Source: Dehalococcoidia bacterium
GTDB lineage: Bacteria > Chloroflexota > Dehalococcoidia > Bin125
Assembly (NCBI GenBank): GCA_963663235.2
Contig: CAXXNO010000006.1
Coordinates: 32,001-96,000 of the forward strand
Length of the DNA: 64,000 bases
Direction of reading: 5' to 3'
Positions 2,641-42,180 of the stretch are shown here, in pieces. The notes below the pieces were generated by a model, which worked only from the letters and a program-made list of their open reading frames with translations, was not told where the DNA came from and did not search any database. A program made the position numbers and the translations under genes. Every line of letters starts with the position of its first letter. Positions within the stretch are counted from its first letter, which is position 1.

Positions 2641-5166
<2,526 letters not shown>

Positions 5167-33588: not shown

Positions 33589-36348
33589 GTGAGCCGGCCT
33601 GCTGCGAAGGAACCGTCGACGGACAAGAAGCTCGTCATTCTGGACGGGCATGGCATCATCTACCGCGCCTATTTCGCCGTGCGGGAGCCGCTCATCGTGC
33701 AGCGGAGCGGCGAGACGGTGACAGCGGTTTACGGTTTCACGAACACGCTGCTGCGGGTGATCGACGAGCTCAAGCCCACGCATGTGGCGGTGGCAATGGA
33801 CACCCCCGGCCCCACGTTCCGCCACGAGCGCGATGCGACGTACAAGGCGCATCGCGCTGAAGCCCCTGAGGATCTGGGTCCTCAGATCGAGCGCACGCGC
33901 GACGTCATCGAGGCGTTCAGTATCCCCATCTATGAGGCTCCCGGCTTTGAGGCGGACGATGTGCTGGCGACGCTGGCCGACCAAGGCACGGAAGCCGGCG
34001 TCGAGACATGGATCGCCACGCTGGATAGCGACCTGCTGCAGCTGGTGCGCCCCGGCGTCAGCGTGTTCATGTATCGCCCCTACCAGCGTGACACTGTTCT
34101 CTACGACAGCGCCGAGCGCGTTCGCGATCGCTACGGTGTCGATCCGCTGCAACTGATCGACCTCAAAGGCTTGAAAGGGGATGCGTCCGACAATATCTCT
34201 GGCGTGCGTGGCATTGGCGAGAAGACCGCCGTGAAGTTGATTAAGGCGTTCGGTTCGGTCGAGCAGGTCTACGAGCGCCTGGATGAAGTCGCGCCGGAGC
34301 GGGTGCGGAAGGCGTTGGTGGAGGGTCGAGAGGCGGCGTTCCACTCCAAGGAGATGGTGACGATCCGCCACGACGCGCCGGTCACCCTGGACGTGGACGG
34401 TTGCGCCATCCATGCGTACGACCGAGATCGCTTGCTGAAGCTCTTCCTGGAGCTGGAGTTTCGCAGCCTCATCGATCGCTTGCCGGAGTCCGCCATGGAA
34501 CCGGCGGTCGGCGCACGCCAGGAACCAGAGGAGACCGACTACGCGGTGCTGCGCTCGTCCGAGGCGCTCAAGGCGTGGCTGGAAAATGCACGGAAGGCGC
34601 CGCTTCTGGCCGTGGACCTGGAGACATCCAGCCAGGACACCCTGCGCGCGCGCATAGCGGGCTACTCGCTCTCCGTTGCTCCCGCGCAAGCCGTCTACGT
34701 GCCGGTGGAGCACGCCGACGACGGCGAACCGCAGCTCGACCCCGAGGAGGCGCGGATGATCCTGCAGCCCGTGCTGGAGGACCCGTCGATCCCCAAGGTG
34801 CTGCACAACGCCAAGTTCGACATGAAAGTGCTTGCTCGCCACGGCGTGAAGCTGGGCGGCCTCCAAGACGACACGATGATCGCCGCCTATCTCTTGGGCG
34901 AAGCGGCGCTGGGACTGAAGACGCTGGCATTGGAGCGCTTGGGCGTCGAGATGACGCCGATCACCGATCTGATCGGCACCGGCAAAGATCAGCGCACGAT
35001 GTGCGATGTGCCCGCCCGCGATGCGGCCGCGTATGCCTGCGCCGACGCCGACATGACGCTGCGGCTGCAGGCCTACTACGCGGAGCGCTTCATGCAGGAG
35101 CCGCAACTGCATCAACTCTACCGCTCGCTGGAGATACCGCTGGTCCAGGTACTGGTCGAGATGGAACTGCGCGGCGTCGCGCTGGACGCGGACGCTCTGC
35201 GCGATATGGCCGTCGACCTGGAGAGCGCTATCGGGCGCAGCGAGCAGTCGATCTACGAATCGATTGGGCATGAGTTCAACATCGCTTCGCCCAAGCAACT
35301 GGGCAGCGTGCTGTATGAGGAGCTGCAATTGCCCAAGGGCCGTAAAGTGGCTCATGGGTACAGCACCGACGCTCGCACGCTGGAGCGGCTGGCCGGCGTC
35401 CATCCGGTGGTTGAGCAGATCCTCCAGTACCGTGAGCTGACCAAGCTCAAGTCGACCTACGTCGCCACGCTGCCCTGTCTGGTCAACTCGGAGACCGGCC
35501 GGATTCACACAGATTACAAGCAGACCGTGGCAGCCACGGGCCGCCTTTCCTCGGAAAATCCCAACCTGCAGAACATCCCGGTGCGGACGGAGCTGGGGCG
35601 TGAAATCCGTCGCGCCTTCGTGGCGCGCGACGGCGAGGCGATGCGTTTTCTCAGCGCCGATTACTCCCAGATCGAGCTGCGCGTGCTGGCTCATCTTTCC
35701 GGCGATCCGGGATTGATCGAGGCCTTTCGCCGCAACGAGGATATCCACGCCGCCACCGCTGCCGGAGCGTACGGCGTCGAGCCCGGCGACGTAGACGACG
35801 AGATGCGCCGCGTGGCCAAGATGATGAACTTCGGCGTGATCTACGGATTGACGGACTTCGGCCTGGCTCAGCGATCGGGCATGGAGCGCAAGCAGGCGCA
35901 GGAGTTCATCGATGGCTACTTCGCTCGCTTCGCTAAGGTGCGCGACTGGATCGAGGCGATCAAGGCGTCGACGCGTGAGCGCGGCTATGCCGAGACGCTG
36001 CTGGGCCGTCGGCGCAATATCCCGGAGATCCGGTCACCGAACTTCCAGGCGCGTGCGGCCGCGGAGCGCGTGGCAGTGAATATGCCGGTTCAGGGCACCG
36101 CCGCCGACGTCATCAAGAGCGCCATGCTGCAAGTCAACGAAGCCTTGAACGAGCGCGAGATCGAGTGCCGCATGCTTCTCCAGGTGCACGACGAGCTGAT
36201 CTTCGAATTACCCGAGCGTGAGGCGCCGGAAGTAGCGGCGCTGCTGGAGGCCGTGATGCCGAGCGCGATCGAGATGGTGGCGCCGCTGCAGATCGATCTC
36301 AAGCTCGGCCCTAACTGGGGAGACATGACGCGCTACATTCCCGCGTGA
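33589..36348 (+). CDS. polA: DNA polymerase I
   Basis: LDGHGIIYRAYF, EADDVLATL, GDASDN, TGRLSSENPNLQNIP, ADYSQIELR, LQVHDEL. Confidence 0.98.
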   Translation: MSRPAAKEPSTDKKLVILDGHGIIYRAYFAVREPLIVQRSGETVTAVYGFTNTLLRVIDELKPTHVAVAMDTPGPTFRHERDATYKAHRAEAPEDLGPQIERTRDVIEAFSIPIYEAPGFEADDVLATLADQGTEAGVETWIATLDSDLLQLVRPGVSVFMYRPYQRDTVLYDSAERVRDRYGVDPLQLIDLKGLKGDASDNISGVRGIGEKTAVKLIKAFGSVEQVYERLDEVAPERVRKALVEGREAAFHSKEMVTIRHDAPVTLDVDGCAIHAYDRDRLLKLFLELEFRSLIDRLPESAMEPAVGARQEPEETDYAVLRSSEALKAWLENARKAPLLAVDLETSSQDTLRARIAGYSLSVAPAQAVYVPVEHADDGEPQLDPEEARMILQPVLEDPSIPKVLHNAKFDMKVLARHGVKLGGLQDDTMIAAYLLGEAALGLKTLALERLGVEMTPITDLIGTGKDQRTMCDVPARDAAAYACADADMTLRLQAYYAERFMQEPQLHQLYRSLEIPLVQVLVEMELRGVALDADALRDMAVDLESAIGRSEQSIYESIGHEFNIASPKQLGSVLYEELQLPKGRKVAHGYSTDARTLERLAGVHPVVEQILQYRELTKLKSTYVATLPCLVNSETGRIHTDYKQTVAATGRLSSENPNLQNIPVRTELGREIRRAFVARDGEAMRFLSADYSQIELRVLAHLSGDPGLIEAFRRNEDIHAATAAGAYGVEPGDVDDEMRRVAKMMNFGVIYGLTDFGLAQRSGMERKQAQEFIDGYFARFAKVRDWIEAIKASTRERGYAETLLGRRRNIPEIRSPNFQARAAAERVAVNMPVQGTAADVIKSAMLQVNEALNEREIECRMLLQVHDELIFELPEREAPEVAALLEAVMPSAIEMVAPLQIDLKLGPNWGDMTRYIPA

Positions 36349-36390
36349 GCGTTCGGCCTCAGAGTCCACCCGTGGTAGTGTGAGCCGGCC

Positions 36391-37245
36391 ATGTTCAGAA
36401 GTTTTGGCAACACCTGGAAACTCATCAAGATCTCCTGGCAGGTCCTGCGAAAGGACAAAGAGCTGATCTTGTTCCCGATCATGTCCGGGATCGGATTGGC
36501 GATCGTCGCTGGAGTGACCGTGGCGATCTTCGCCGCCAACGGAGCGCTCGACCGCATCGACGCGGAAGAGGGCGAATCGGGGCTCACGGGCGTCGACGCG
36601 GCAATCGGGGTCATCGGCCTGTTCGTCGGGTTCTTCATCATCAACTACTTCAACGCGGCGCTGATCGGCGCCGCCCGGGTCCGCCTCAAGGGCGGCGACC
36701 CCAACATCTGGACCGGATTCGCCGCGGTCAACAAACACATCCCGGCGGTGGCCGGCTGGGCCGTGATCTCGGTCATCGTGTTCCTCGTCCTGCAGTACCT
36801 CCGCAGTCGGCGCGGCGGGTTCATCTACAACATCGTGATCGGCTTGGTCGGGGCCGTCTGGGCGTATATGACGTTCTTTGTGATCCCGGTGCTGATCGTG
36901 GAGGGCGTCGGGCCGATCGAGGCGATCAAGCGTTCCTCCGCCTTATTCAAGCGGACCTGGGGCGAGCAATTGGTGGGCAACTTCGGCTTCGGGATTCTCT
37001 ATATCGTGGTCGGTCTGATCGTGGCGATCCCGATCGGCATCGCGTTCGCCATCTCGCCCATTGTCGGGTTCATCGTCGCGGTGCCTCTGGCCGGATTGGC
37101 CATCGCCGCCATTCAGACGATGGAGGGCATCTTCAAGGCGGCCCTGTACGACTACGTGGCTGAGGGGGTGACACCGGAGCTCTTCCCGGAGGACACCCTG
37201 CGCGACGCCTACGCCCCCGGGCCCACCGCCTACCGCGGCATGTAG
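36391..37245 (+). CDS. Conserved membrane protein (DUF6159-like)
   Basis: SWQVLRKDKELILFP, YFNAAL, TFFVIPVLIVE, AIKRSSALFKRTWGE. Confidence 0.75.
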   Translation: MFRSFGNTWKLIKISWQVLRKDKELILFPIMSGIGLAIVAGVTVAIFAANGALDRIDAEEGESGLTGVDAAIGVIGLFVGFFIINYFNAALIGAARVRLKGGDPNIWTGFAAVNKHIPAVAGWAVISVIVFLVLQYLRSRRGGFIYNIVIGLVGAVWAYMTFFVIPVLIVEGVGPIEAIKRSSALFKRTWGEQLVGNFGFGILYIVVGLIVAIPIGIAFAISPIVGFIVAVPLAGLAIAAIQTMEGIFKAALYDYVAEGVTPELFPEDTLRDAYAPGPTAYRGM

Positions 37246-37271
37246 GCCCATCACCGTCTAGGGAAGCCCAG

Positions 37272-37294
37272 GCCGCCCCATCGGGCGGCTTTTT
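37272..37294 (+). terminator. Intrinsic terminator
   Basis: GCCGCCC-catc-GGGCGGC-TTTTT. Confidence 0.85.
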
Positions 37295-37389
37295 GTCCCC
37301 CCGGGGGAAATTCGATCTCGGGCCATTTCGCCCCCTGCTCCAGATAGAGCGGTGGCCGATTTGGGTGTGGGGTGACAGAAACCGGCAGG

Positions 37390-37430
37390 GTTCCGCCACG
37401 TTTCCGCCAGGTTCCGCCAGGTTCTTGCAC
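37390..37430. repeat. Four ~10-bp direct repeats in helical phase
   Basis: GTTCCGCCAC-g-TTTCCGCCAG-GTTCCGCCAG-GTTCTTGCAC. Confidence 0.75.
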
Positions 37431-37550
37431 GGTGGCGGCAGGTTCTCGCCTCAGCGTCGTTGGGCGGCCGTGCGGCGGCGGAAAGGTCGCGGCGGGGCAC
37501 GATAGAGGGGGATGTCGAGGAGAGGCTGTGGAAGATTCCCTCATGAGCGT

Positions 37551-37579
37551 ATTATAGTACGCGATACGCGGAGTCACAA
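37551..37579 (-). promoter_or_regulatory. Near-consensus sigma70 promoter
   Basis: Minus strand TTGTGA-17 nt-TATAAT, 6 nt before an ATG at 37544. Confidence 0.65.
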
Positions 37580-37849
37580 TGAGCCTGTGAGGCAGTCGGA
37601 GGAAGATGATTTACATAAGGAATGGCTCAGGCTGGCCGGGGAAAGGGAAAGGGAGTCGGAGGCAGCACGGGTGTGGGGCGGTCCGCGCACGGGGAGCGGT
37701 GGCGGTTCTGGACGCGATGCCAGTGGGCTGCACTGGACCCGGGGGCGCTGGAGGAGCAGCGCGGGAGGGGTGCGGAGAGCGCGTAGAGCCGTAACCCTCA
37801 ACAGGAGGCTCGGTGGGTGGCGTCCGTCGCGGCGACGGCGAGGCGAGGC

Positions 37850-37867
37850 GGTAGTTGGTCAGGGTGA
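37850..37867 (+). repeat. Putative recombination-site copy A
   Basis: GGTAGTTGGTCAGGGTGA, 14/18 identical to copy C. Lies 20 nt past the stop of ORF 37888-38541. Confidence 0.55.
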
Positions 37868-37887
37868 AGGCGGGAGGCGGCGTGATG

Positions 37888-38541
37888 CTAGGCCGCTGGC
37901 CAGTACATGAACCCCGTCTGCACGACGGTGCGGTCAAAGACGTCGAAAGAACTCGCTTCCCAGTAAATGTCGAAGCCCGAAGCGCCGTCCCCCTCGATCT
38001 CGCCACCCGAGTACAACCATGGAATGGGGCGGTGCTCGTCAGCTGGGCCAAGAGCGTCCCAAGTTCCTGCAATGAACGGCGAGCCAAGACCCGCAGAGGT
38101 GGGGAGAGGCGGCGCCGGCGGGATGCCGGGTGCGCGATCGCGCACCGGGGCTATCCATACTCGAATCTTTATCGACCGCGCAGGCCCCGGGCCGACGTTC
38201 CGAAGAGCCGCCCGAACCCGGTACAGGCCGGCGAAGGAGAAGTCTTCCTCCGTGCGCTGTTGCGCTGGCTGGAGATCGAGCCGAACGACAGGCATGAGGC
38301 TGTCCAGCCGCGTCCGCCGCTGCTCGCGCACGCTCAGCCAGGCAAACCACCCCGCCAGCCCAGCAAGGAGAGCGAGGGCGTAGGCGGACCAGGCGCTGAG
38401 GGCATCGAGGGAACGATCGCTGATCCCTGCCGGATCTTCCCAGAAGGACAGCAGACTCAAGACCAGCAGTGTCACGCCAGTGCCCACGCCGATAGGCGCG
38501 ATAACGATGAACAAGCGGTGATTGACGAGTCGGCCCAACAC
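37888..38541 (-). CDS. Hypothetical membrane protein (2 TM plus soluble beta domain with N-x-G-x-G-P-A motif)
   Basis: TM segments, EQRRTRLDSLMPVV, LRNVGPGPARSI. May be 5' truncated at the adjacent site. Confidence 0.7.
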   Translation of the reverse strand: MLGRLVNHRLFIVIAPIGVGTGVTLLVLSLLSFWEDPAGISDRSLDALSAWSAYALALLAGLAGWFAWLSVREQRRTRLDSLMPVVRLDLQPAQQRTEEDFSFAGLYRVRAALRNVGPGPARSIKIRVWIAPVRDRAPGIPPAPPLPTSAGLGSPFIAGTWDALGPADEHRPIPWLYSGGEIEGDGASGFDIYWEASSFDVFDRTVVQTGFMYWPAA

Positions 38542-38543
38542 GA

Positions 38544-38561
38544 GCGAAGTGTACGACTACT
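38544..38561 (-). repeat. Putative recombination-site copy B (inverted, degenerate)
   Basis: GCGAAGTGTACGACTACT matches 10/18 to the reverse complement of copy C, with AA.TG and ACTAC kept. Confidence 0.4.
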
Positions 38562-38650
38562 CCGCCGATGGATCCGTCGTAGGGATCGAGTTCATCAACG
38601 TCAGCGGCGTTGGTGACCTCGCGACTTCCGTCGTCCGCGCCGCCGTTTAG
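38552..38650 (+). pseudogene. C-terminal remnant of a DUF2283-like protein
   Basis: YDYSADGSVVGIEFINVSG resembles the DUF2283 D...G..VGIE motif. The N-terminus is missing, with the break at site B. Confidence 0.55.
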
Positions 38651-39404
38651 GCGAAGGCGGCTGAAGTGGAGCGCGCTCATCAAAGAAGCCAGAGAAGAGT
38701 GGGATTACTTCATCACGGACGAAATGATGCATTGTGAGCAGACCACTGGGGCTGATGACCTCGTTCTCGACCGCGATACCAACGAGGGCCCCGATGCTTA
38801 CTGTGTATTCCTCATCCGCTGGGGCGAGATCGAGCCTAAGTATATCGCCGTCTTTGACGTACCCCGCGAGCCAGACTTCACTCCCGGTGCTGCTCCGAAT
38901 GTGGACACGACCGGCGACATAGTTGAATGTCCGGTGCTTGTCTCGATTGGCGAGTTGATTGATCAGCCAGAGATAGTAGAGCTCAGACCAGTCCGTGCGG
39001 TGGTACGGCTGAAGGCACTCGATCAGATCCCATGCCTCGACTGGGACGCTCTGCAACGCATCCGGCGCTCGCTCGGGGTAACGCTTCTCATTGAGGACGA
39101 TAGGAAACGCGGTCCGAATGCTGATCCGATCTTCGCCGCAGACGAGCAGCGCCAACTGATAGGCCAAGTGGTCGAGGCTAGCCCTGATATTAGTGACAGC
39201 GTCGCCGAACACTGATCCGACGTGGTCGGGCGCGGGGCGCACCTGAAACCGGAGGAGGAAGTAGCCCGGTCTCTGTGGGTCGCGTTCTTGCGAGGCGCCA
39301 TATGGCTCAGTCCCCTTCCAGGCGTCGTACTCCCGTTCGAAGTCACGGATATGTTCCTCAGCCCGCTGGAGTTTGAGGAGTGGGCCGTCCAGTGGATGAG
39401 GCAT
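38601..39404 (-). CDS. Hypothetical protein, putative HEPN-like nuclease
   Basis: LKLQRAEEHI, GDAVTNIRASLDHL, FPI, LQPY, LANRDKHR. Sequence visibly more AT-rich than flanks. Confidence 0.65.
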   Translation of the reverse strand: MPHPLDGPLLKLQRAEEHIRDFEREYDAWKGTEPYGASQERDPQRPGYFLLRFQVRPAPDHVGSVFGDAVTNIRASLDHLAYQLALLVCGEDRISIRTAFPIVLNEKRYPERAPDALQSVPVEAWDLIECLQPYHRTDWSELYYLWLINQLANRDKHRTFNYVAGRVHIRSSTGSEVWLAGYVKDGDILRLDLAPADEEYTVSIGALVGIAVENEVISPSGLLTMHHFVRDEVIPLFSGFFDERAPLQPPSPKRRRGRRKSRGHQRR

Positions 39405-39499
39405 GAGGTATCCTCACTCGTGAGGGACGCCTTGGCTGCGAGGCTTGTGGGGAGAGGGACGATCGGGCAACTCGACCTCCATGCACAGCGACTCCTGCG

Positions 39500-39642
39500 T
39501 TACGATCTGGAGGAACGCACGCCACGCTTGCGCTTCCCGCGCGCCCGGCCGGCGGCCTGGCGGACCTTCTGCACCTTCCACGTCTTGACGCTGTTGGCGC
39601 TCAGCAGGAGCGGCGACCCGGCCCCGTTCGTCGCCGCTAGCA
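39500..39642 (-). pseudogene. 3' gene remnant truncated at site C
   Basis: High-GC coding-like frame LLAATNGAGSPLLLSANSVKTWKVQKVRQAAGRARGKRKRGVRSSRS* with no own start; it begins at the motif. Confidence 0.4.
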
Positions 39643-39660
39643 GGTAGTGCGTCAGTTTGA
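39643..39660 (+). repeat. Putative recombination-site copy C
   Basis: GGTAGTGCGTCAGTTTGA directly abuts the stop codon of ORF 39661-39867. Confidence 0.6.
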
Positions 39661-39867
39661 CTAGAGAGAGTTCATATACGTCTGAAAAGCCGCCCACGAA
39701 ATCGTCTTACCATTTCCACGTTTCGTCCGGCCCTTGCACCATATGAGCTGCGTCTTGGTAACGACCAGATCACCAAGAAACTCGCCTTGGGGATTCCTGA
39801 TCTCCAACTCGATACCACGGTTCTTGAGTTCCATATCGACGTTGAGGCTCTTGATCGTCACCTGCAT
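39661..39867 (-). CDS. Small hypothetical protein (68 aa)
   Basis: MQVTIKSLNVDMELKNRGIELEIRNPQGEFLGDLVVTKTQLIWCKGRT...SWAAF. GGAG RBS upstream; low-GC codon usage. Confidence 0.75.
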   Translation of the reverse strand: MQVTIKSLNVDMELKNRGIELEIRNPQGEFLGDLVVTKTQLIWCKGRTKRGNGKTISWAAFQTYMNSL

Positions 39868-39968
39868 CAGACAACTCCGATCCAGCGGTGGGGCTTGGCA
39901 CGATCCCTCTGTATTCTGACGGGCAGTCTACTCGTCTTCGGAGCGTGTCGTTGCCTGGACTTAGAAAA

Positions 39969-41174
39969 CTACTCCTCGCCGAAGAAGCGCCGCCGTGCCG
40001 TCTCGTCGAGCGTCGCATCCGGGCCACTGACGAGAACATCGAGCCGGCGGGTGCGGTCTTTCGCCTGCAGCGGAAGGGCTCTCGCGCGGCGGGCCGCCGC
40101 TTCCGGGCCGGTCCGCAGAAATAGGTCCGTGAACCAGCCCTCGTACGTGTGAAGGACCCCGTAGTAACGGTCGTGCGCCGCCGCGTAGGCGTGCCCGGCC
40201 GCCTCCCAGTCCGGGCTGCTCAGCAACTGATCCCGCAGGACGCGGACGTCGCGGAGCGCCAGCGACAAGCCCTGGCCGTGCGACGGATCGCTGGCCGCGG
40301 CAGCGTCACCGATCACGGCGACGCCATCTCGGTACGGATGGTCGACCCAGAAAGGGGCGCCTTCAAAGGTCGCGAGAGGACCGAGCACTTCGAGCCCGGC
40401 GTAGAACTCCGCTGGCATCCCCGCCTCGATCGAACGGGCGATAAAGGCCGGCATGTCGCTCGGTCCGCTCAAGCGATGTTCCCACTGGGTGGTGCTGACG
40501 AAGTAGGCGCGGACGCGGCCGTGACCCTGCGGGAAGAGGATCGCGATGTGGCCAGCGTCGGGGTTGACGGCCAAGTGCACGGCGTCGTCGGGCGCAGGAC
40601 AGTTTCCCACCAAGACGCCGGCGATCAGCGTCGCGTCCGGGTCCCGATGCACCACGAATCCGGCCTGCGTCCGCGAGGCGGAACGCCGCCCGTCGGCGAT
40701 GACGACGAGGCGGGCCGCCAGCGCGTCGATACGGCCATCTTGCTCAACATCGAGTGTCGGACGCAGCCCCGGCCGGACGCTCAGCACCCGCGCGCCGCGG
40801 CGGACCTCCGCACCCGCCTCTCGCGCCGCCGCCAGGACGGTTTCCTGCATCGCCGGGTGGAAGAAGCCAAGCCCCGGCGTGTGCTTCGGAGTCGTCGCGA
40901 TGAGGTCGCGATGGCCGGCGCGGTCCCCGCTTCGATAGGTGTCGAACCAACGGTGCTCGTGTCCGCACCTCGCCAGAAGCGGCGCCAGGAGGCCGAGGTC
41001 GCCCGCTTCGGCGGCGCCCCAAGGCATCAGCCCTTCCCCGCGCACCCGATCCTTGAACTCCGTCTCGCGCTCCAGCACCAGCACTCGGACGCCGTTCTCC
41101 GCCATCGTTTTGGCGAGGGCTGCGCCGCCCAGACCGCCGCCGACGGTGATGATGTCGTAGTCCGGCAGTGCCAA
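39969..41174 (-). CDS. FAD-dependent monooxygenase/oxidoreductase
   Basis: VGGGLGG, LERE, IADGRRS, IGDAAAASDPSHGQGLS. Confidence 0.9.
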   Translation of the reverse strand: MALPDYDIITVGGGLGGAALAKTMAENGVRVLVLERETEFKDRVRGEGLMPWGAAEAGDLGLLAPLLARCGHEHRWFDTYRSGDRAGHRDLIATTPKHTPGLGFFHPAMQETVLAAAREAGAEVRRGARVLSVRPGLRPTLDVEQDGRIDALAARLVVIADGRRSASRTQAGFVVHRDPDATLIAGVLVGNCPAPDDAVHLAVNPDAGHIAILFPQGHGRVRAYFVSTTQWEHRLSGPSDMPAFIARSIEAGMPAEFYAGLEVLGPLATFEGAPFWVDHPYRDGVAVIGDAAAASDPSHGQGLSLALRDVRVLRDQLLSSPDWEAAGHAYAAAHDRYYGVLHTYEGWFTDLFLRTGPEAAARRARALPLQAKDRTRRLDVLVSGPDATLDETARRRFFGEE

Positions 41175-41259
41175 CGCGACCCTCCTTGCGCCGGCTCAAC
41201 CGCTCGGCAGCCAAGGGCGCGAGGATCATACTGGGGCTCTGGACCGATAGGATCGCCGC

Positions 41260-42180
41260 ATGCCCGAGCTCCCCGAAGTCGAAACGATCCGCCGCGATCT
41301 AGCGCCGCGAGTCGCCGGTCGCACGATCACCTCGCTCACGGTCATGCCGGGCGCCAAACGGATGCTGGTCGGCGTGCCGACGAGGCGGGTGCGAGCCCGC
41401 CTCGTCGATCGACGGATCGAAGGCATCGAGCGCCGGGGCAAGTACCTGCTCTTCCAGCTGGATTCGGGATCGGTTTGGGTGATGCATCTGCGGATGACCG
41501 GCACGCTGCGCCATCGGTCGACCGGTGGCGAGCCGGATCCCTTCCAGCGGATCGTCGTGACCCTGGATGACGGCTCCGAGTTGCGCTTCACCGACGTCCG
41601 CAAGTTCGGCACCTTCGAGGTACTGGAGAGCGCAGAGGAAGTGACGTGCAAGTTAGGCATCGAGCCGCTCACGCAGGCGTTCACCGAGGAAGCGCTCTGG
41701 TCCGCGCTGCACGGACGAAAGGCGCCGCTGAAATCGACGCTGCTGGATCAGCGCCGGATCGCCGGCCTGGGCAATATCTACGTCGATGAGGCGCTCTTCC
41801 TGGCTCGGCTCCACCCCGCCGTGCCCGCCGGATCGCTCCGACCGGCCGAGCGCAGGGCCCTGCATGCCGCCATCGAGGAAGTGATTCGAGAGGGAATCGC
41901 GCACCGCGGCGCCTCCTTCCGCGACTACACCGACGCCGAAGGGAAGGACGGCAGGCAGCAGTTCTTCGTTCGTGTCTTCCGTCGCACGGACGAACCGTGT
42001 GACGTCTGCGGCACGCCGATCCGACGCACGGTCATCGGAGGGCGCGCGTCGCACTGGTGCCCGCGCTGTCAACCGGCGCGCCAGACATCGCGCCGCGTCC
42101 CGCGCAAGCGGGCGAGAAGGAGCGCGTCCATCGACGGGACCGATGGCGTAGATTGCAGGCGTAAGGAGCGTCGCCGATGA
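41260..42180 (+). CDS. mutM: Formamidopyrimidine-DNA glycosylase
   Basis: MPELPEVET, RRGKYL, HLRMTG, GLGNIYVDEALF, C4 Zn finger. Confidence 0.97.
   Translation: MPELPEVETIRRDLAPRVAGRTITSLTVMPGAKRMLVGVPTRRVRARLVDRRIEGIERRGKYLLFQLDSGSVWVMHLRMTGTLRHRSTGGEPDPFQRIVVTLDDGSELRFTDVRKFGTFEVLESAEEVTCKLGIEPLTQAFTEEALWSALHGRKAPLKSTLLDQRRIAGLGNIYVDEALFLARLHPAVPAGSLRPAERRALHAAIEEVIREGIAHRGASFRDYTDAEGKDGRQQFFVRVFRRTDEPCDVCGTPIRRTVIGGRASHWCPRCQPARQTSRRVPRKRARRSASIDGTDGVDCRRKERRR

Follow-up and report, generated by a model that had tools for sequence, protein, structure and literature searches.

Four related 18-mers in an accessory island

We analysed a 64,000-nucleotide stretch of DNA, referred to here as the window, from the genome of a Dehalococcoidia bacterium (Chloroflexota; GenBank assembly GCA_963663235.2, contig CAXXNO010000006.1, positions 32,001 to 96,000 of the forward strand), in which four related 18-bp sites, designated A to D, lie next to two of the genes of an accessory island (Table 1). 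A preliminary description of this DNA had read the sites as two inverted pairs, each bracketing one accessory gene, and had proposed minimal cassettes moved in trans by a site-specific, possibly tyrosine, recombinase and stacked at a hotspot. The coordinates and sequences of the four sites and the positions of the genes are as claimed there, as are the identities, with site A matching site C at 14/18 positions and sites B and D each matching the reverse complement of C at 10/18. Site C adjoins the stop codon of a 68-aa orphan gene; its minus-strand reading is TCAAACTGACGCACTACC, with the outer edge at 39643 and the element interior toward 39661 and beyond. Site A has the orientation of site C, and the 217-aa gene reads toward it with a stop codon 20 nt short of the site.

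On both strands of the 2.75-Mb genome, 26,547 sites are at least 10/18 identical to site C (~1 per 100 bp) and only 21 are at least 14/18 identical. The 17-mer TCAAACTGACSCRCTAC has three genomic copies, against 0.0002 expected under a second-order Markov model, an excess far beyond chance. The two copies outside the window, at C11:104779 and C4:930207, match site C at 16/18 and 15/18 and each other at 17/18. Alignment confines the similarity of the three copies to the 18-mer; all three are intergenic, and the genes neighbouring them are unrelated to each other.

The island interrupts a conserved gene order. In all six related genera compared, which are the closest available although the identity of the DUF6159 protein is as low as 55-63%, no gap breaks the series of polA, the DUF6159 gene, mutM and the gene after it, and the DUF6159 and mutM matches are at most 100 nt apart in five of the six and 1.1 kb apart in the sixth. 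The GC content drops to 0.55-0.60 at 38550-39150 (the 267-aa gene) and at 39600-40050 (the 68-aa gene), compared with 0.65-0.72 in the surroundings, so that the lower-GC island of the preliminary description stands, and is larger than it was described. The FAD-dependent monooxygenase gene, which had been taken for a flanking housekeeping gene, belongs to the island: it is missing from this position in six of six relatives and is present here in a 94%-identical strain (run X2). Contigs of relatives from runs X1, X3 and X4 join 37151 to 41256, but at a likeness threshold of 80 the matching sides measure just 28-34 nt, so that the support is weak; contig cover of 37400-41000 in runs X1 and X3 is mostly little or none and is uninformative there. 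Synteny in the six genera supports the proposal that the locus is an insertion hotspot between housekeeping genes, and the 4-kb island was built by several insertions.

Table 1. Features of the island, with positions counted from the first nucleotide of the window (IRR, right inverted repeat; ORF, open reading frame)
Feature	Position	Strand	Sequence or remark
Accessory island	37246..41259	none	4.0 kb between the DUF6159 gene and mutM
Unrelated repeat	37311..37489	+	GGTGACAGAAACCGGCA, then short tandem units of ~10-11 nt; three further copies in the genome
Site A	37850-37867 (as a feature, 37850..37870)	-	GGTAGTTGGTCAGGGTGA; possible decayed IRR-type end
217-aa predicted membrane protein	37888..38541	-	from the ORF list; no Pfam, NCBIfam or PADLOC match
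42-aa ORF	38522..38650	+	weak match to the DUF2283 C-terminus
Site B	38544-38561	none	GCGAAGTGTACGACTACT; chance match, not an element end
267-aa hypothetical protein	38601..39404	-	low-GC stretch; no Pfam, NCBIfam or PADLOC match
Site C	39643-39660	-	GGTAGTGCGTCAGTTTGA; terminal inverted repeat of an IS1-like element
68-aa orphan gene	39661..39867	-	reads toward the IRR; stop codon flush with site C
Site D	39915-39932	none	TCTGACGGGCAGTCTACT; chance match, not an element end
FAD-dependent monooxygenase	39969..41174	-	PF01494, E = 1.3e-24

The motif of site C ends inverted pairs in other genomes

When the motif was scanned against one genome per species of bacteria and archaea, other species, belonging to many phyla, had the 17-mer of site C, TCAAACTGACCCACTACC, in at least 119 contigs. 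About half of 80 contig titles tallied were Acidobacteriota, the remainder including Alpha- and Deltaproteobacteria, Actinomycetota, Chloroflexota, Planctomycetota, Gemmatimonadota, Nitrospirota, Bacteroidota, Vampirovibrionales and Dormiibacterota. The sequence TCAAACTGACxCACTAC, which the preliminary description had mentioned for accessory-gene ends in other environmental bacteria, is thus the true consensus. Among the matches listed, one of the four variants allowed, TCAAACTGACCCACTAC, accounted for 106 of 122 instances; chance would split the hits evenly among the four variants, and these are therefore not chance hits. The base after the motif was C in 106/121 of the same matches and the base before it was T in 79/121. 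The exact 17-mer did not occur in 60 relatives, and with up to two mismatches there were 22 matches in 18 of these 60 genomes, compared with six for a reversed control.

A second copy of the motif (at least 13/17 identity) was found in 68 of the 119 loci listed, overwhelmingly in inverted orientation on the TCAAAC side and 13 nt to 4.6 kb away, the pairs reading GGTAGTGGGTCAGTTTGAA ... TTCAAACTGACCCACTACC. The 55 partner ends and 121 seed ends among the matches listed give the consensus GGTAGTGGGTCAGTTTGAA, and the ends of the family read GGTAGTGGGTCAGTTTGAA(A/T)T. The 8-bp sequences immediately outside the ends were identical in 16 of 47 listed pairs and agreed at 7/8 positions or better in 24 of 47, whereas none of the 47 reached 6/8 in a control with the right flank shifted by 6 nt. 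Inverted ends together with an 8-bp duplication whose sequence is arbitrary mark out a DDE transposon. The 47 pairs span 32 to 4588 bp and comprise 22 elements of at most 225 bp, 11 of 392-790 bp, seven of 1017-1561 bp and seven of 2879-4588 bp. Of 101 testable ends, 33 have an ORF of 100 aa or longer that is directed toward the TCAAAC end and terminates between -30 and +9 nt of it, compared with three control positions, and in 11 cases the stop codon is a TGA inside the repeat. The TCAAAC end was named the IRR because the transposase genes of autonomous copies stop there. One contig of a Dormiibacterota metagenome-assembled genome (MAG) carries one left end and, beyond it, two right ends that share an orientation, at distances of 1.4 and 3.3 kb (L095:1324-4672), and the near-identical outer flanks (gggatcgg and gggaccgg) suggest a tandem or nested arrangement of two elements.

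These results bear on whether site C and its two genomic copies could be binding sites of a host regulator, unrelated to mobility, a role with which the intergenic position of all three copies would agree. The identical sequence, however, recurs in many phyla, where it forms inverted pairs that come with target duplications and transposases, site C is not palindromic, and the genes that neighbour the copies are mutually unrelated, so that we regard a regulatory function as scarcely credible. A literature search returned no paper with the 17-mers and one unrelated paper with a 13-mer; ISfinder lay outside that search, and we do not claim the family as undescribed.

IS1-like transposases and transposase-less derivatives

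An ORF with a match to the Pfam family DDE_Tnp_IS1 (PF03400) was present in all seven scanned elements of at least 1.5 kb (L072, L121, L077, L064, L045, L090 and L085), four of the seven matches lying above the 24.1-bit cut-off and three just below it, and several of these transposase ORFs have an N-terminal helix-turn-helix. The 3349-bp pairing in L095 was scanned over its first 1.4 kb only and so falls outside the seven. Transposase-bearing copies measure 1561-4588 bp and include passengers, a size beyond the 740-1180 bp of IS1, and are closer to insertion sequences with passengers than to classical IS1; the ISMhu11-type IS1 subgroup in ISfinder reaches ~4.6 kb. The passengers of the long elements are a STAND/AAA ATPase, HTH_3 regulators, a ClpP-like protease and a nested Mutator-type transposase. 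The last of these is a Mutator-family (IS256-like) transposase gene nested in a 4.6-kb IS1-like element on an Acidobacteriota MAG contig (L085:1928-3235). The family ends (GGTAGTG) are of the GGnnnTG type and the 8-bp duplications fall within the range of the direct repeats of IS1, for which the ISfinder-derived Table 8 of PMC10425158 gives GGnnnTG ends and repeats of 8-9 bp; GGnnnTG ends are common to IS1 and IS6 according to PMC6807381.

Elements that lack a transposase are frequent among the shorter pairs. None of six elements of 1.0-1.4 kb gave a transposase match at E <=0.001; their cargo is a TnpB gene (L099), a ChaN-like protein (L051) or proteins without a family (L039, L128, L066 and L095), and the 790-bp element of L096 carries a methyltransferase. 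The shorter elements contain passenger genes only, or nothing, and correspond to mobile insertion cassettes (MICs) and MITEs, miniature transposable elements with inverted repeats; MIC231 of Bacillus cereus is the MIC prototype. Together with solo inverted repeats, MICs and MITEs are recognised as non-autonomous, transposase-dependent derivatives of insertion sequences (ISs) in PMC3129680. The loci L039 and L128 hold one and the same 1.06-kb transposase-less element at 95% identity, with homology limited to the element and with different target duplications, so that the cassette was inserted independently into different flanks. In L179, which belongs to the same class as the organism studied here, a 993-bp element contains two family-less ORFs and has a 7/8 duplication. 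On an Acidimicrobiales MAG contig, the 1256-bp element at L099:2605-3860 combines IS1-like ends with a duplication of 8 bp that is perfect, CCGCACGC; its sole gene encodes a full TnpB (OrfB_IS605 plus a Cas12f-like TNB domain), here a passenger between the ends of another transposon family.

Units of a single accessory gene within GGTAG...CTACC inverted ends and without a transposase, as envisaged in the preliminary description, are therefore a real form of this family, both in other genomes and at the C4 copy described below. The recombination mechanism attached to them does not hold. In that proposal a trans-acting tyrosine recombinase would recombine the sites and thereby stack minimal cassettes; matches to the domain of such recombinases number 15 in the genome, 14 of them above the cut-off, and the island is a hotspot, both of which would suit it. 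Against it, the ends found elsewhere are inverted GGnnnTG ends flanked by 8-bp duplications of unrelated sequence, a DDE signature, and the long copies encode IS1-like DDE transposases and not recombinases. The domain search placed none of its 15 matches inside the window, and a repeat scan of 37200-41300 showed no attC-like hairpin at the gene ends, in agreement with the preliminary description, although no dedicated attC model was run. We consider stacking by a tyrosine recombinase very improbable.

A mapped cassette insertion between leuC and leuD

The C4 copy of the motif sits between leuC and leuD, which abut in four relatives. In two others from related genera, G003 and G009, a conserved 71-aa ORF and a HicB-like (UPF0150) gene lie between leuC and leuD, and the 71-aa ORF is intact. 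Homology of the C4 region (locus L002) to G003 and G009 runs from leuC to positions 4019/4020, the outer edge of the IRR, and resumes at ~2827, ~1.19 kb away. The break in the 71-aa ORF falls after ...MVTMSNG, and the ORF continues at ...IELPHRLIRRAG with the loss of ~11 residues (L002:2775-4151). The opposite end, GGTAATGATATAGTCTGACTC, is in the correct orientation 28 nt from the point at which homology resumes and scores 9.5 bits on the matrix of family ends described below. The element measures 1163 bp and its sole gene encodes a DUF3800 protein. Its flanks agree at 4/8 positions and give no clean duplication, from which it follows that some sequence was lost afterwards. The C4 copy is one accessory gene between inverted sites that was inserted between housekeeping genes by transposition. 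The 71-aa ORF has no Pfam match and could be the HicB-like gene's toxin partner, so far unrecognised; a HicA-like label would be given only by its position upstream of that gene.

For the C11 copy no partner end of at least 4 bits was found within 6.5 kb, and in its surroundings only a DUF4389 gene is conserved in eight relatives, so that an insertion there is not mappable. We also considered whether sites A and C might be the direct repeats of a 1.8-kb element, to which a weak site 1751 nt from the C11 copy offered a parallel. That site lies inside an AurF-like coding region and scores below 8 bits on the independent matrix of family ends, and the idea was dropped.

Sites A to D as candidate element ends

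To score the sites in the window we used a position weight matrix (PWM) for which the 55 partner ends in other genomes were the sole source, and applied it across the genome (5,509,418 positions). Site C scored 28.4 bits and ranked second of all positions, and is clearly a real element end. Site A scored 15.0 bits and ranked about tenth genome-wide. Only nine positions score at least 15 bits, and arithmetic from the scan puts the chance of one such site within a 4-kb island at ~0.013. Site A is altered at positions 7, 14 and 15, all nearly invariant in the IS1-like family, and a search for a partner end found none; we judge the chances about even that it is a second, older and decayed scar of the same kind. 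Sites B and D scored 0.1 and -10.2 bits on a matrix for which scores of at least 0 turn up 0.385 times per kb per orientation across the genome. These two sites are chance similarities, and the earlier claim that both genes are bracketed reduces, for the window, to one good end.

The pairing of A with B (712 bp) and of C with D (290 bp) as two complete single-gene IS1-like cassettes with badly decayed ends deserves consideration all the same, as the geometry is that of the family, with an outer GGTAG...CTAC and one gene inside that reads toward the IRR-type end; the low-GC stretch 39600-40050 ends near D, and the C4 copy shows that an opposite end can decay to 9.5 bits. The scores of B and D nevertheless argue otherwise, as does the density of 10/18 matches in this genome. 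Within the 100-120 nt that lie upstream of each gene, gapped matches to the end consensus are no better than those of random genome segments, 38% of which reached the match in the B zone (P = 0.38) and 73% that in the D zone (P = 0.73). Neither pair has an 8-bp flank repeat, and CGCTAGCA and CGTCTTCG, which flank C and D, agree at 3/8 positions. We consider two complete cassettes unlikely. Thus, the proposal of single-gene cassettes moved in trans is upheld in kind, by the elements of L039/L128, L051, L096, L099 and L179 and by the DUF3800 element at C4, and is unsupported for the A-B and C-D pairings.

A structural boundary at site C is most directly supported by a strain comparison. A 3.3-kb contig from run X2, ~95% identical to the window, matches 35500-37413 and 39645-39825; where the window has 2231 nt between these matches, the contig carries 683 nt of other sequence. 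The repeat and the 68-aa gene are common to the strain and the window, and divergence sets in within 2 nt of the outer edge of C. The left breakpoint, at 37413, falls inside the tandem units of the 37311-37489 repeat and not at site A. A single end that matches an IS family (28.4 bits) thus stands at a boundary where homology resumes (39645), in the manner of a solo inverted repeat.

Site C might alternatively be the end of a larger element that extends from 39643 to ~41259, carries the 68-aa gene together with the FAD monooxygenase gene and has lost its far end at the mutM border. Both genes are on the same strand and read toward C, the right border of the island is at ~41256, family members reach 4.6 kb with passengers, and the 94-95%-identical strain has both genes. 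A search near 41175-41259 found nothing like an end, however, and the monooxygenase gene has the genome's usual GC content (0.66-0.72) against 0.55-0.58 in the region of the 68-aa gene, a difference that suggests different origins. We regard this larger unit as quite improbable.

The 68-aa gene is real: its product is a member of a small orphan family, well conserved, in which the motif GDLxxTKxxLIWCxG is invariant. Thirteen homologous proteins were found, copies of 93-97% identity (P0002-P0007) among them, and 19 metagenome loci have homologues at 51-64% identity, with 16 invariant columns. Its predicted fold, a confident model, has four strands and a helix (pLDDT 90); a Foldseek comparison with the PDB gave no match at E <=0.001 (best E = 0.54), and the protein has no Pfam, NCBIfam or PADLOC family. 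To judge from position and orientation, the gene is probably a passenger of the relic that ends at site C; a gene directed into the IRR and stopping there is the layout common in the family.

Taking these results together, we think it likely that site C is one inverted repeat of an IS1-like DDE family, with the 68-aa gene as the passenger of a one-ended, immobile relic, site A perhaps a second relic, and sites B and D similar by chance. In autonomous copies of the family the transposase gene runs into the IRR, its stop codon often lying inside the repeat, and in the derivatives a passenger gene (MIC) or nothing (MITE) has replaced the transposase. Derivatives would move only through a cognate transposase supplied from elsewhere, which would bind both ends, cut, and insert the unit with an 8-bp target duplication. 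In the window the 68-aa gene would have arrived as a passenger, and the opposite end would since have been lost or have decayed beyond recognition, leaving an immobile relic that would mark one of the several insertions that made the 4-kb island.

Several observations weigh against this explanation. On the interior side of site C there is no opposite end of at least 4 bits within 6.5 kb, and no target duplication was found in the island, as the preliminary description had also noted; with neither a second end nor a duplication, transposition into this exact site is not demonstrated. The sequence outside C (a 46-aa reading frame) has no homologue among longer proteins, weak evidence in itself, and consequently no interrupted gene can be shown there. 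None of the 19 metagenome loci with homologues of the 68-aa gene has an end beside the gene, contrary to the expectation that homologues would carry the same flanks, so that the association of the repeat with this gene is specific to this lineage; its passenger status is, as noted, drawn solely from position and orientation. The strain comparison consists of one contig from a k-mer assembly. No IS1-type transposase was detected in the assembly at E <=1, either with PF03400 or with the transposase of a family element as query, although at 92% completeness in 14 contigs, and with ISs often failing to assemble, its absence is not shown. As to the family itself, the best NCBIfam match of the transposases is NF033558 (IS1), at E ~1e-14 and 52-56 bits against a cut-off of 100, and IS6 models are also weakly matched; on these sequence comparisons the family is best termed IS1-like, and not proven IS1.

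Other genes and repeats of the island

The ORFs of the island give no transposase family match, and neither a transposase nor an integrase was found in it, as previously described. The 42-aa ORF matches PF10049 at E = 7e-4 (20.2 bits against a cut-off of 23), with residues 10-28 aligned to model positions 31-49 of 49, and is probably a gene remnant. The nearest ESM Atlas clusters of the 267-aa protein are unnamed hypothetical proteins. When the genes of the island and those of the other copies were compared with the at least 119 motif loci, none was shared, the best match being that of the 267-aa protein to L097 (E = 7e-4). A search of 36000-42000 against Rfam gave no match at E <=1. The window contains no tRNA and hence no tRNA-derived attachment site; the sole tRNA near a motif copy lies 2 kb from the C11 copy.

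The unrelated repeat at the left side of the island belongs to a second family with the layout CCAGATGG, ~25 nt, GGTGACAGAAACCGGCA and then three to four tandem units of ~10-11 nt (GGTTCCGCCAxG). Its other copies are at C12:82561-82740, C6:339840-340017 and C4:900787-900966; all four copies are intergenic with unrelated neighbouring genes, and the family has no Rfam match. The only serine recombinase (Resolvase) domain match of the genome is in a 503-aa open frame at C6:96586-96972, ~590 nt past the end of the window.

Relation to known mobile elements

What first appeared to be a new cassette system is now recognisable as an IS1-like transposon scar. The window itself offers no new mechanism, and the scar explains one boundary of a strain-variable island, while the C4 element documents a transposase-less single-gene cassette inside a conserved small ORF of the same genome. 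The 18-21-bp signature can be used to find the ISs, MICs, MITEs and solo ends of the family, which annotation normally misses. A catalogue of the wider family would be worthwhile, given near-invariant ends across many phyla and varied passengers that include a TnpB gene. We offer more tentatively, as a possibility that we rather doubt, that the 18-bp site is the signature of an undescribed cross-phylum IS1-like vehicle whose transposase-less derivatives serve as general single-gene shuttles, the window being a fossil of that traffic. Such shuttles would carry orphan genes, DUF3800 genes, methyltransferases and TnpB, and in environmental bacteria would insert at intergenic hotspots and within conserved ORFs of small size, with ends that hardly vary among roughly a dozen phylum-level groups. 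Transposases of only ~64-78% nucleotide identity with nearly the same ends would then point to unusually strict end recognition or to recent spread between phyla.

Among known systems, the family resembles IS1 in its GGnnnTG-type ends (GGTAGTG) and 8-bp target duplications, features taken for IS1 from Table 8 of PMC10425158 and from PMC6807381, and in a DDE transposase that matches Pfam DDE_Tnp_IS1 and has an N-terminal helix-turn-helix. It departs from IS1 in that its transposases stay well below the cut-off of the NCBIfam IS1 model and also show weak IS6 matches, in that the transposase appears to be a single ORF of ~290-344 aa and not an insA/insB pair, and in the size of its autonomous copies, 1.5-4.6 kb where classical IS1 measures 740-1180 bp; the window has, moreover, no transposase and one end only. 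The derivatives of the family are like MICs and MITEs, consisting of IS ends around a passenger or nothing, with no internal transposase and a need for mobilisation in trans. The unit in the window shares with a MIC the lack of an internal transposase, and differs from a complete MIC in having neither two inverted ends nor a target duplication; with one recognisable end it amounts to a solo repeat with an attached gene, and no cognate transposase was found in this assembly. To integron cassettes it bears the likeness of single promoter-less accessory genes with a short site at the 3' end, stacked at one locus. The window, in contrast to an integron, has no integrase and, by the repeat scan described above, no attC-type imperfect palindrome, and the sites of the family are inverted at both ends with target duplications, neither of which integron cassettes have. 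The object is of a known kind, an IS1-like solo end with a probable passenger, and not a new recombinase-driven cassette system.

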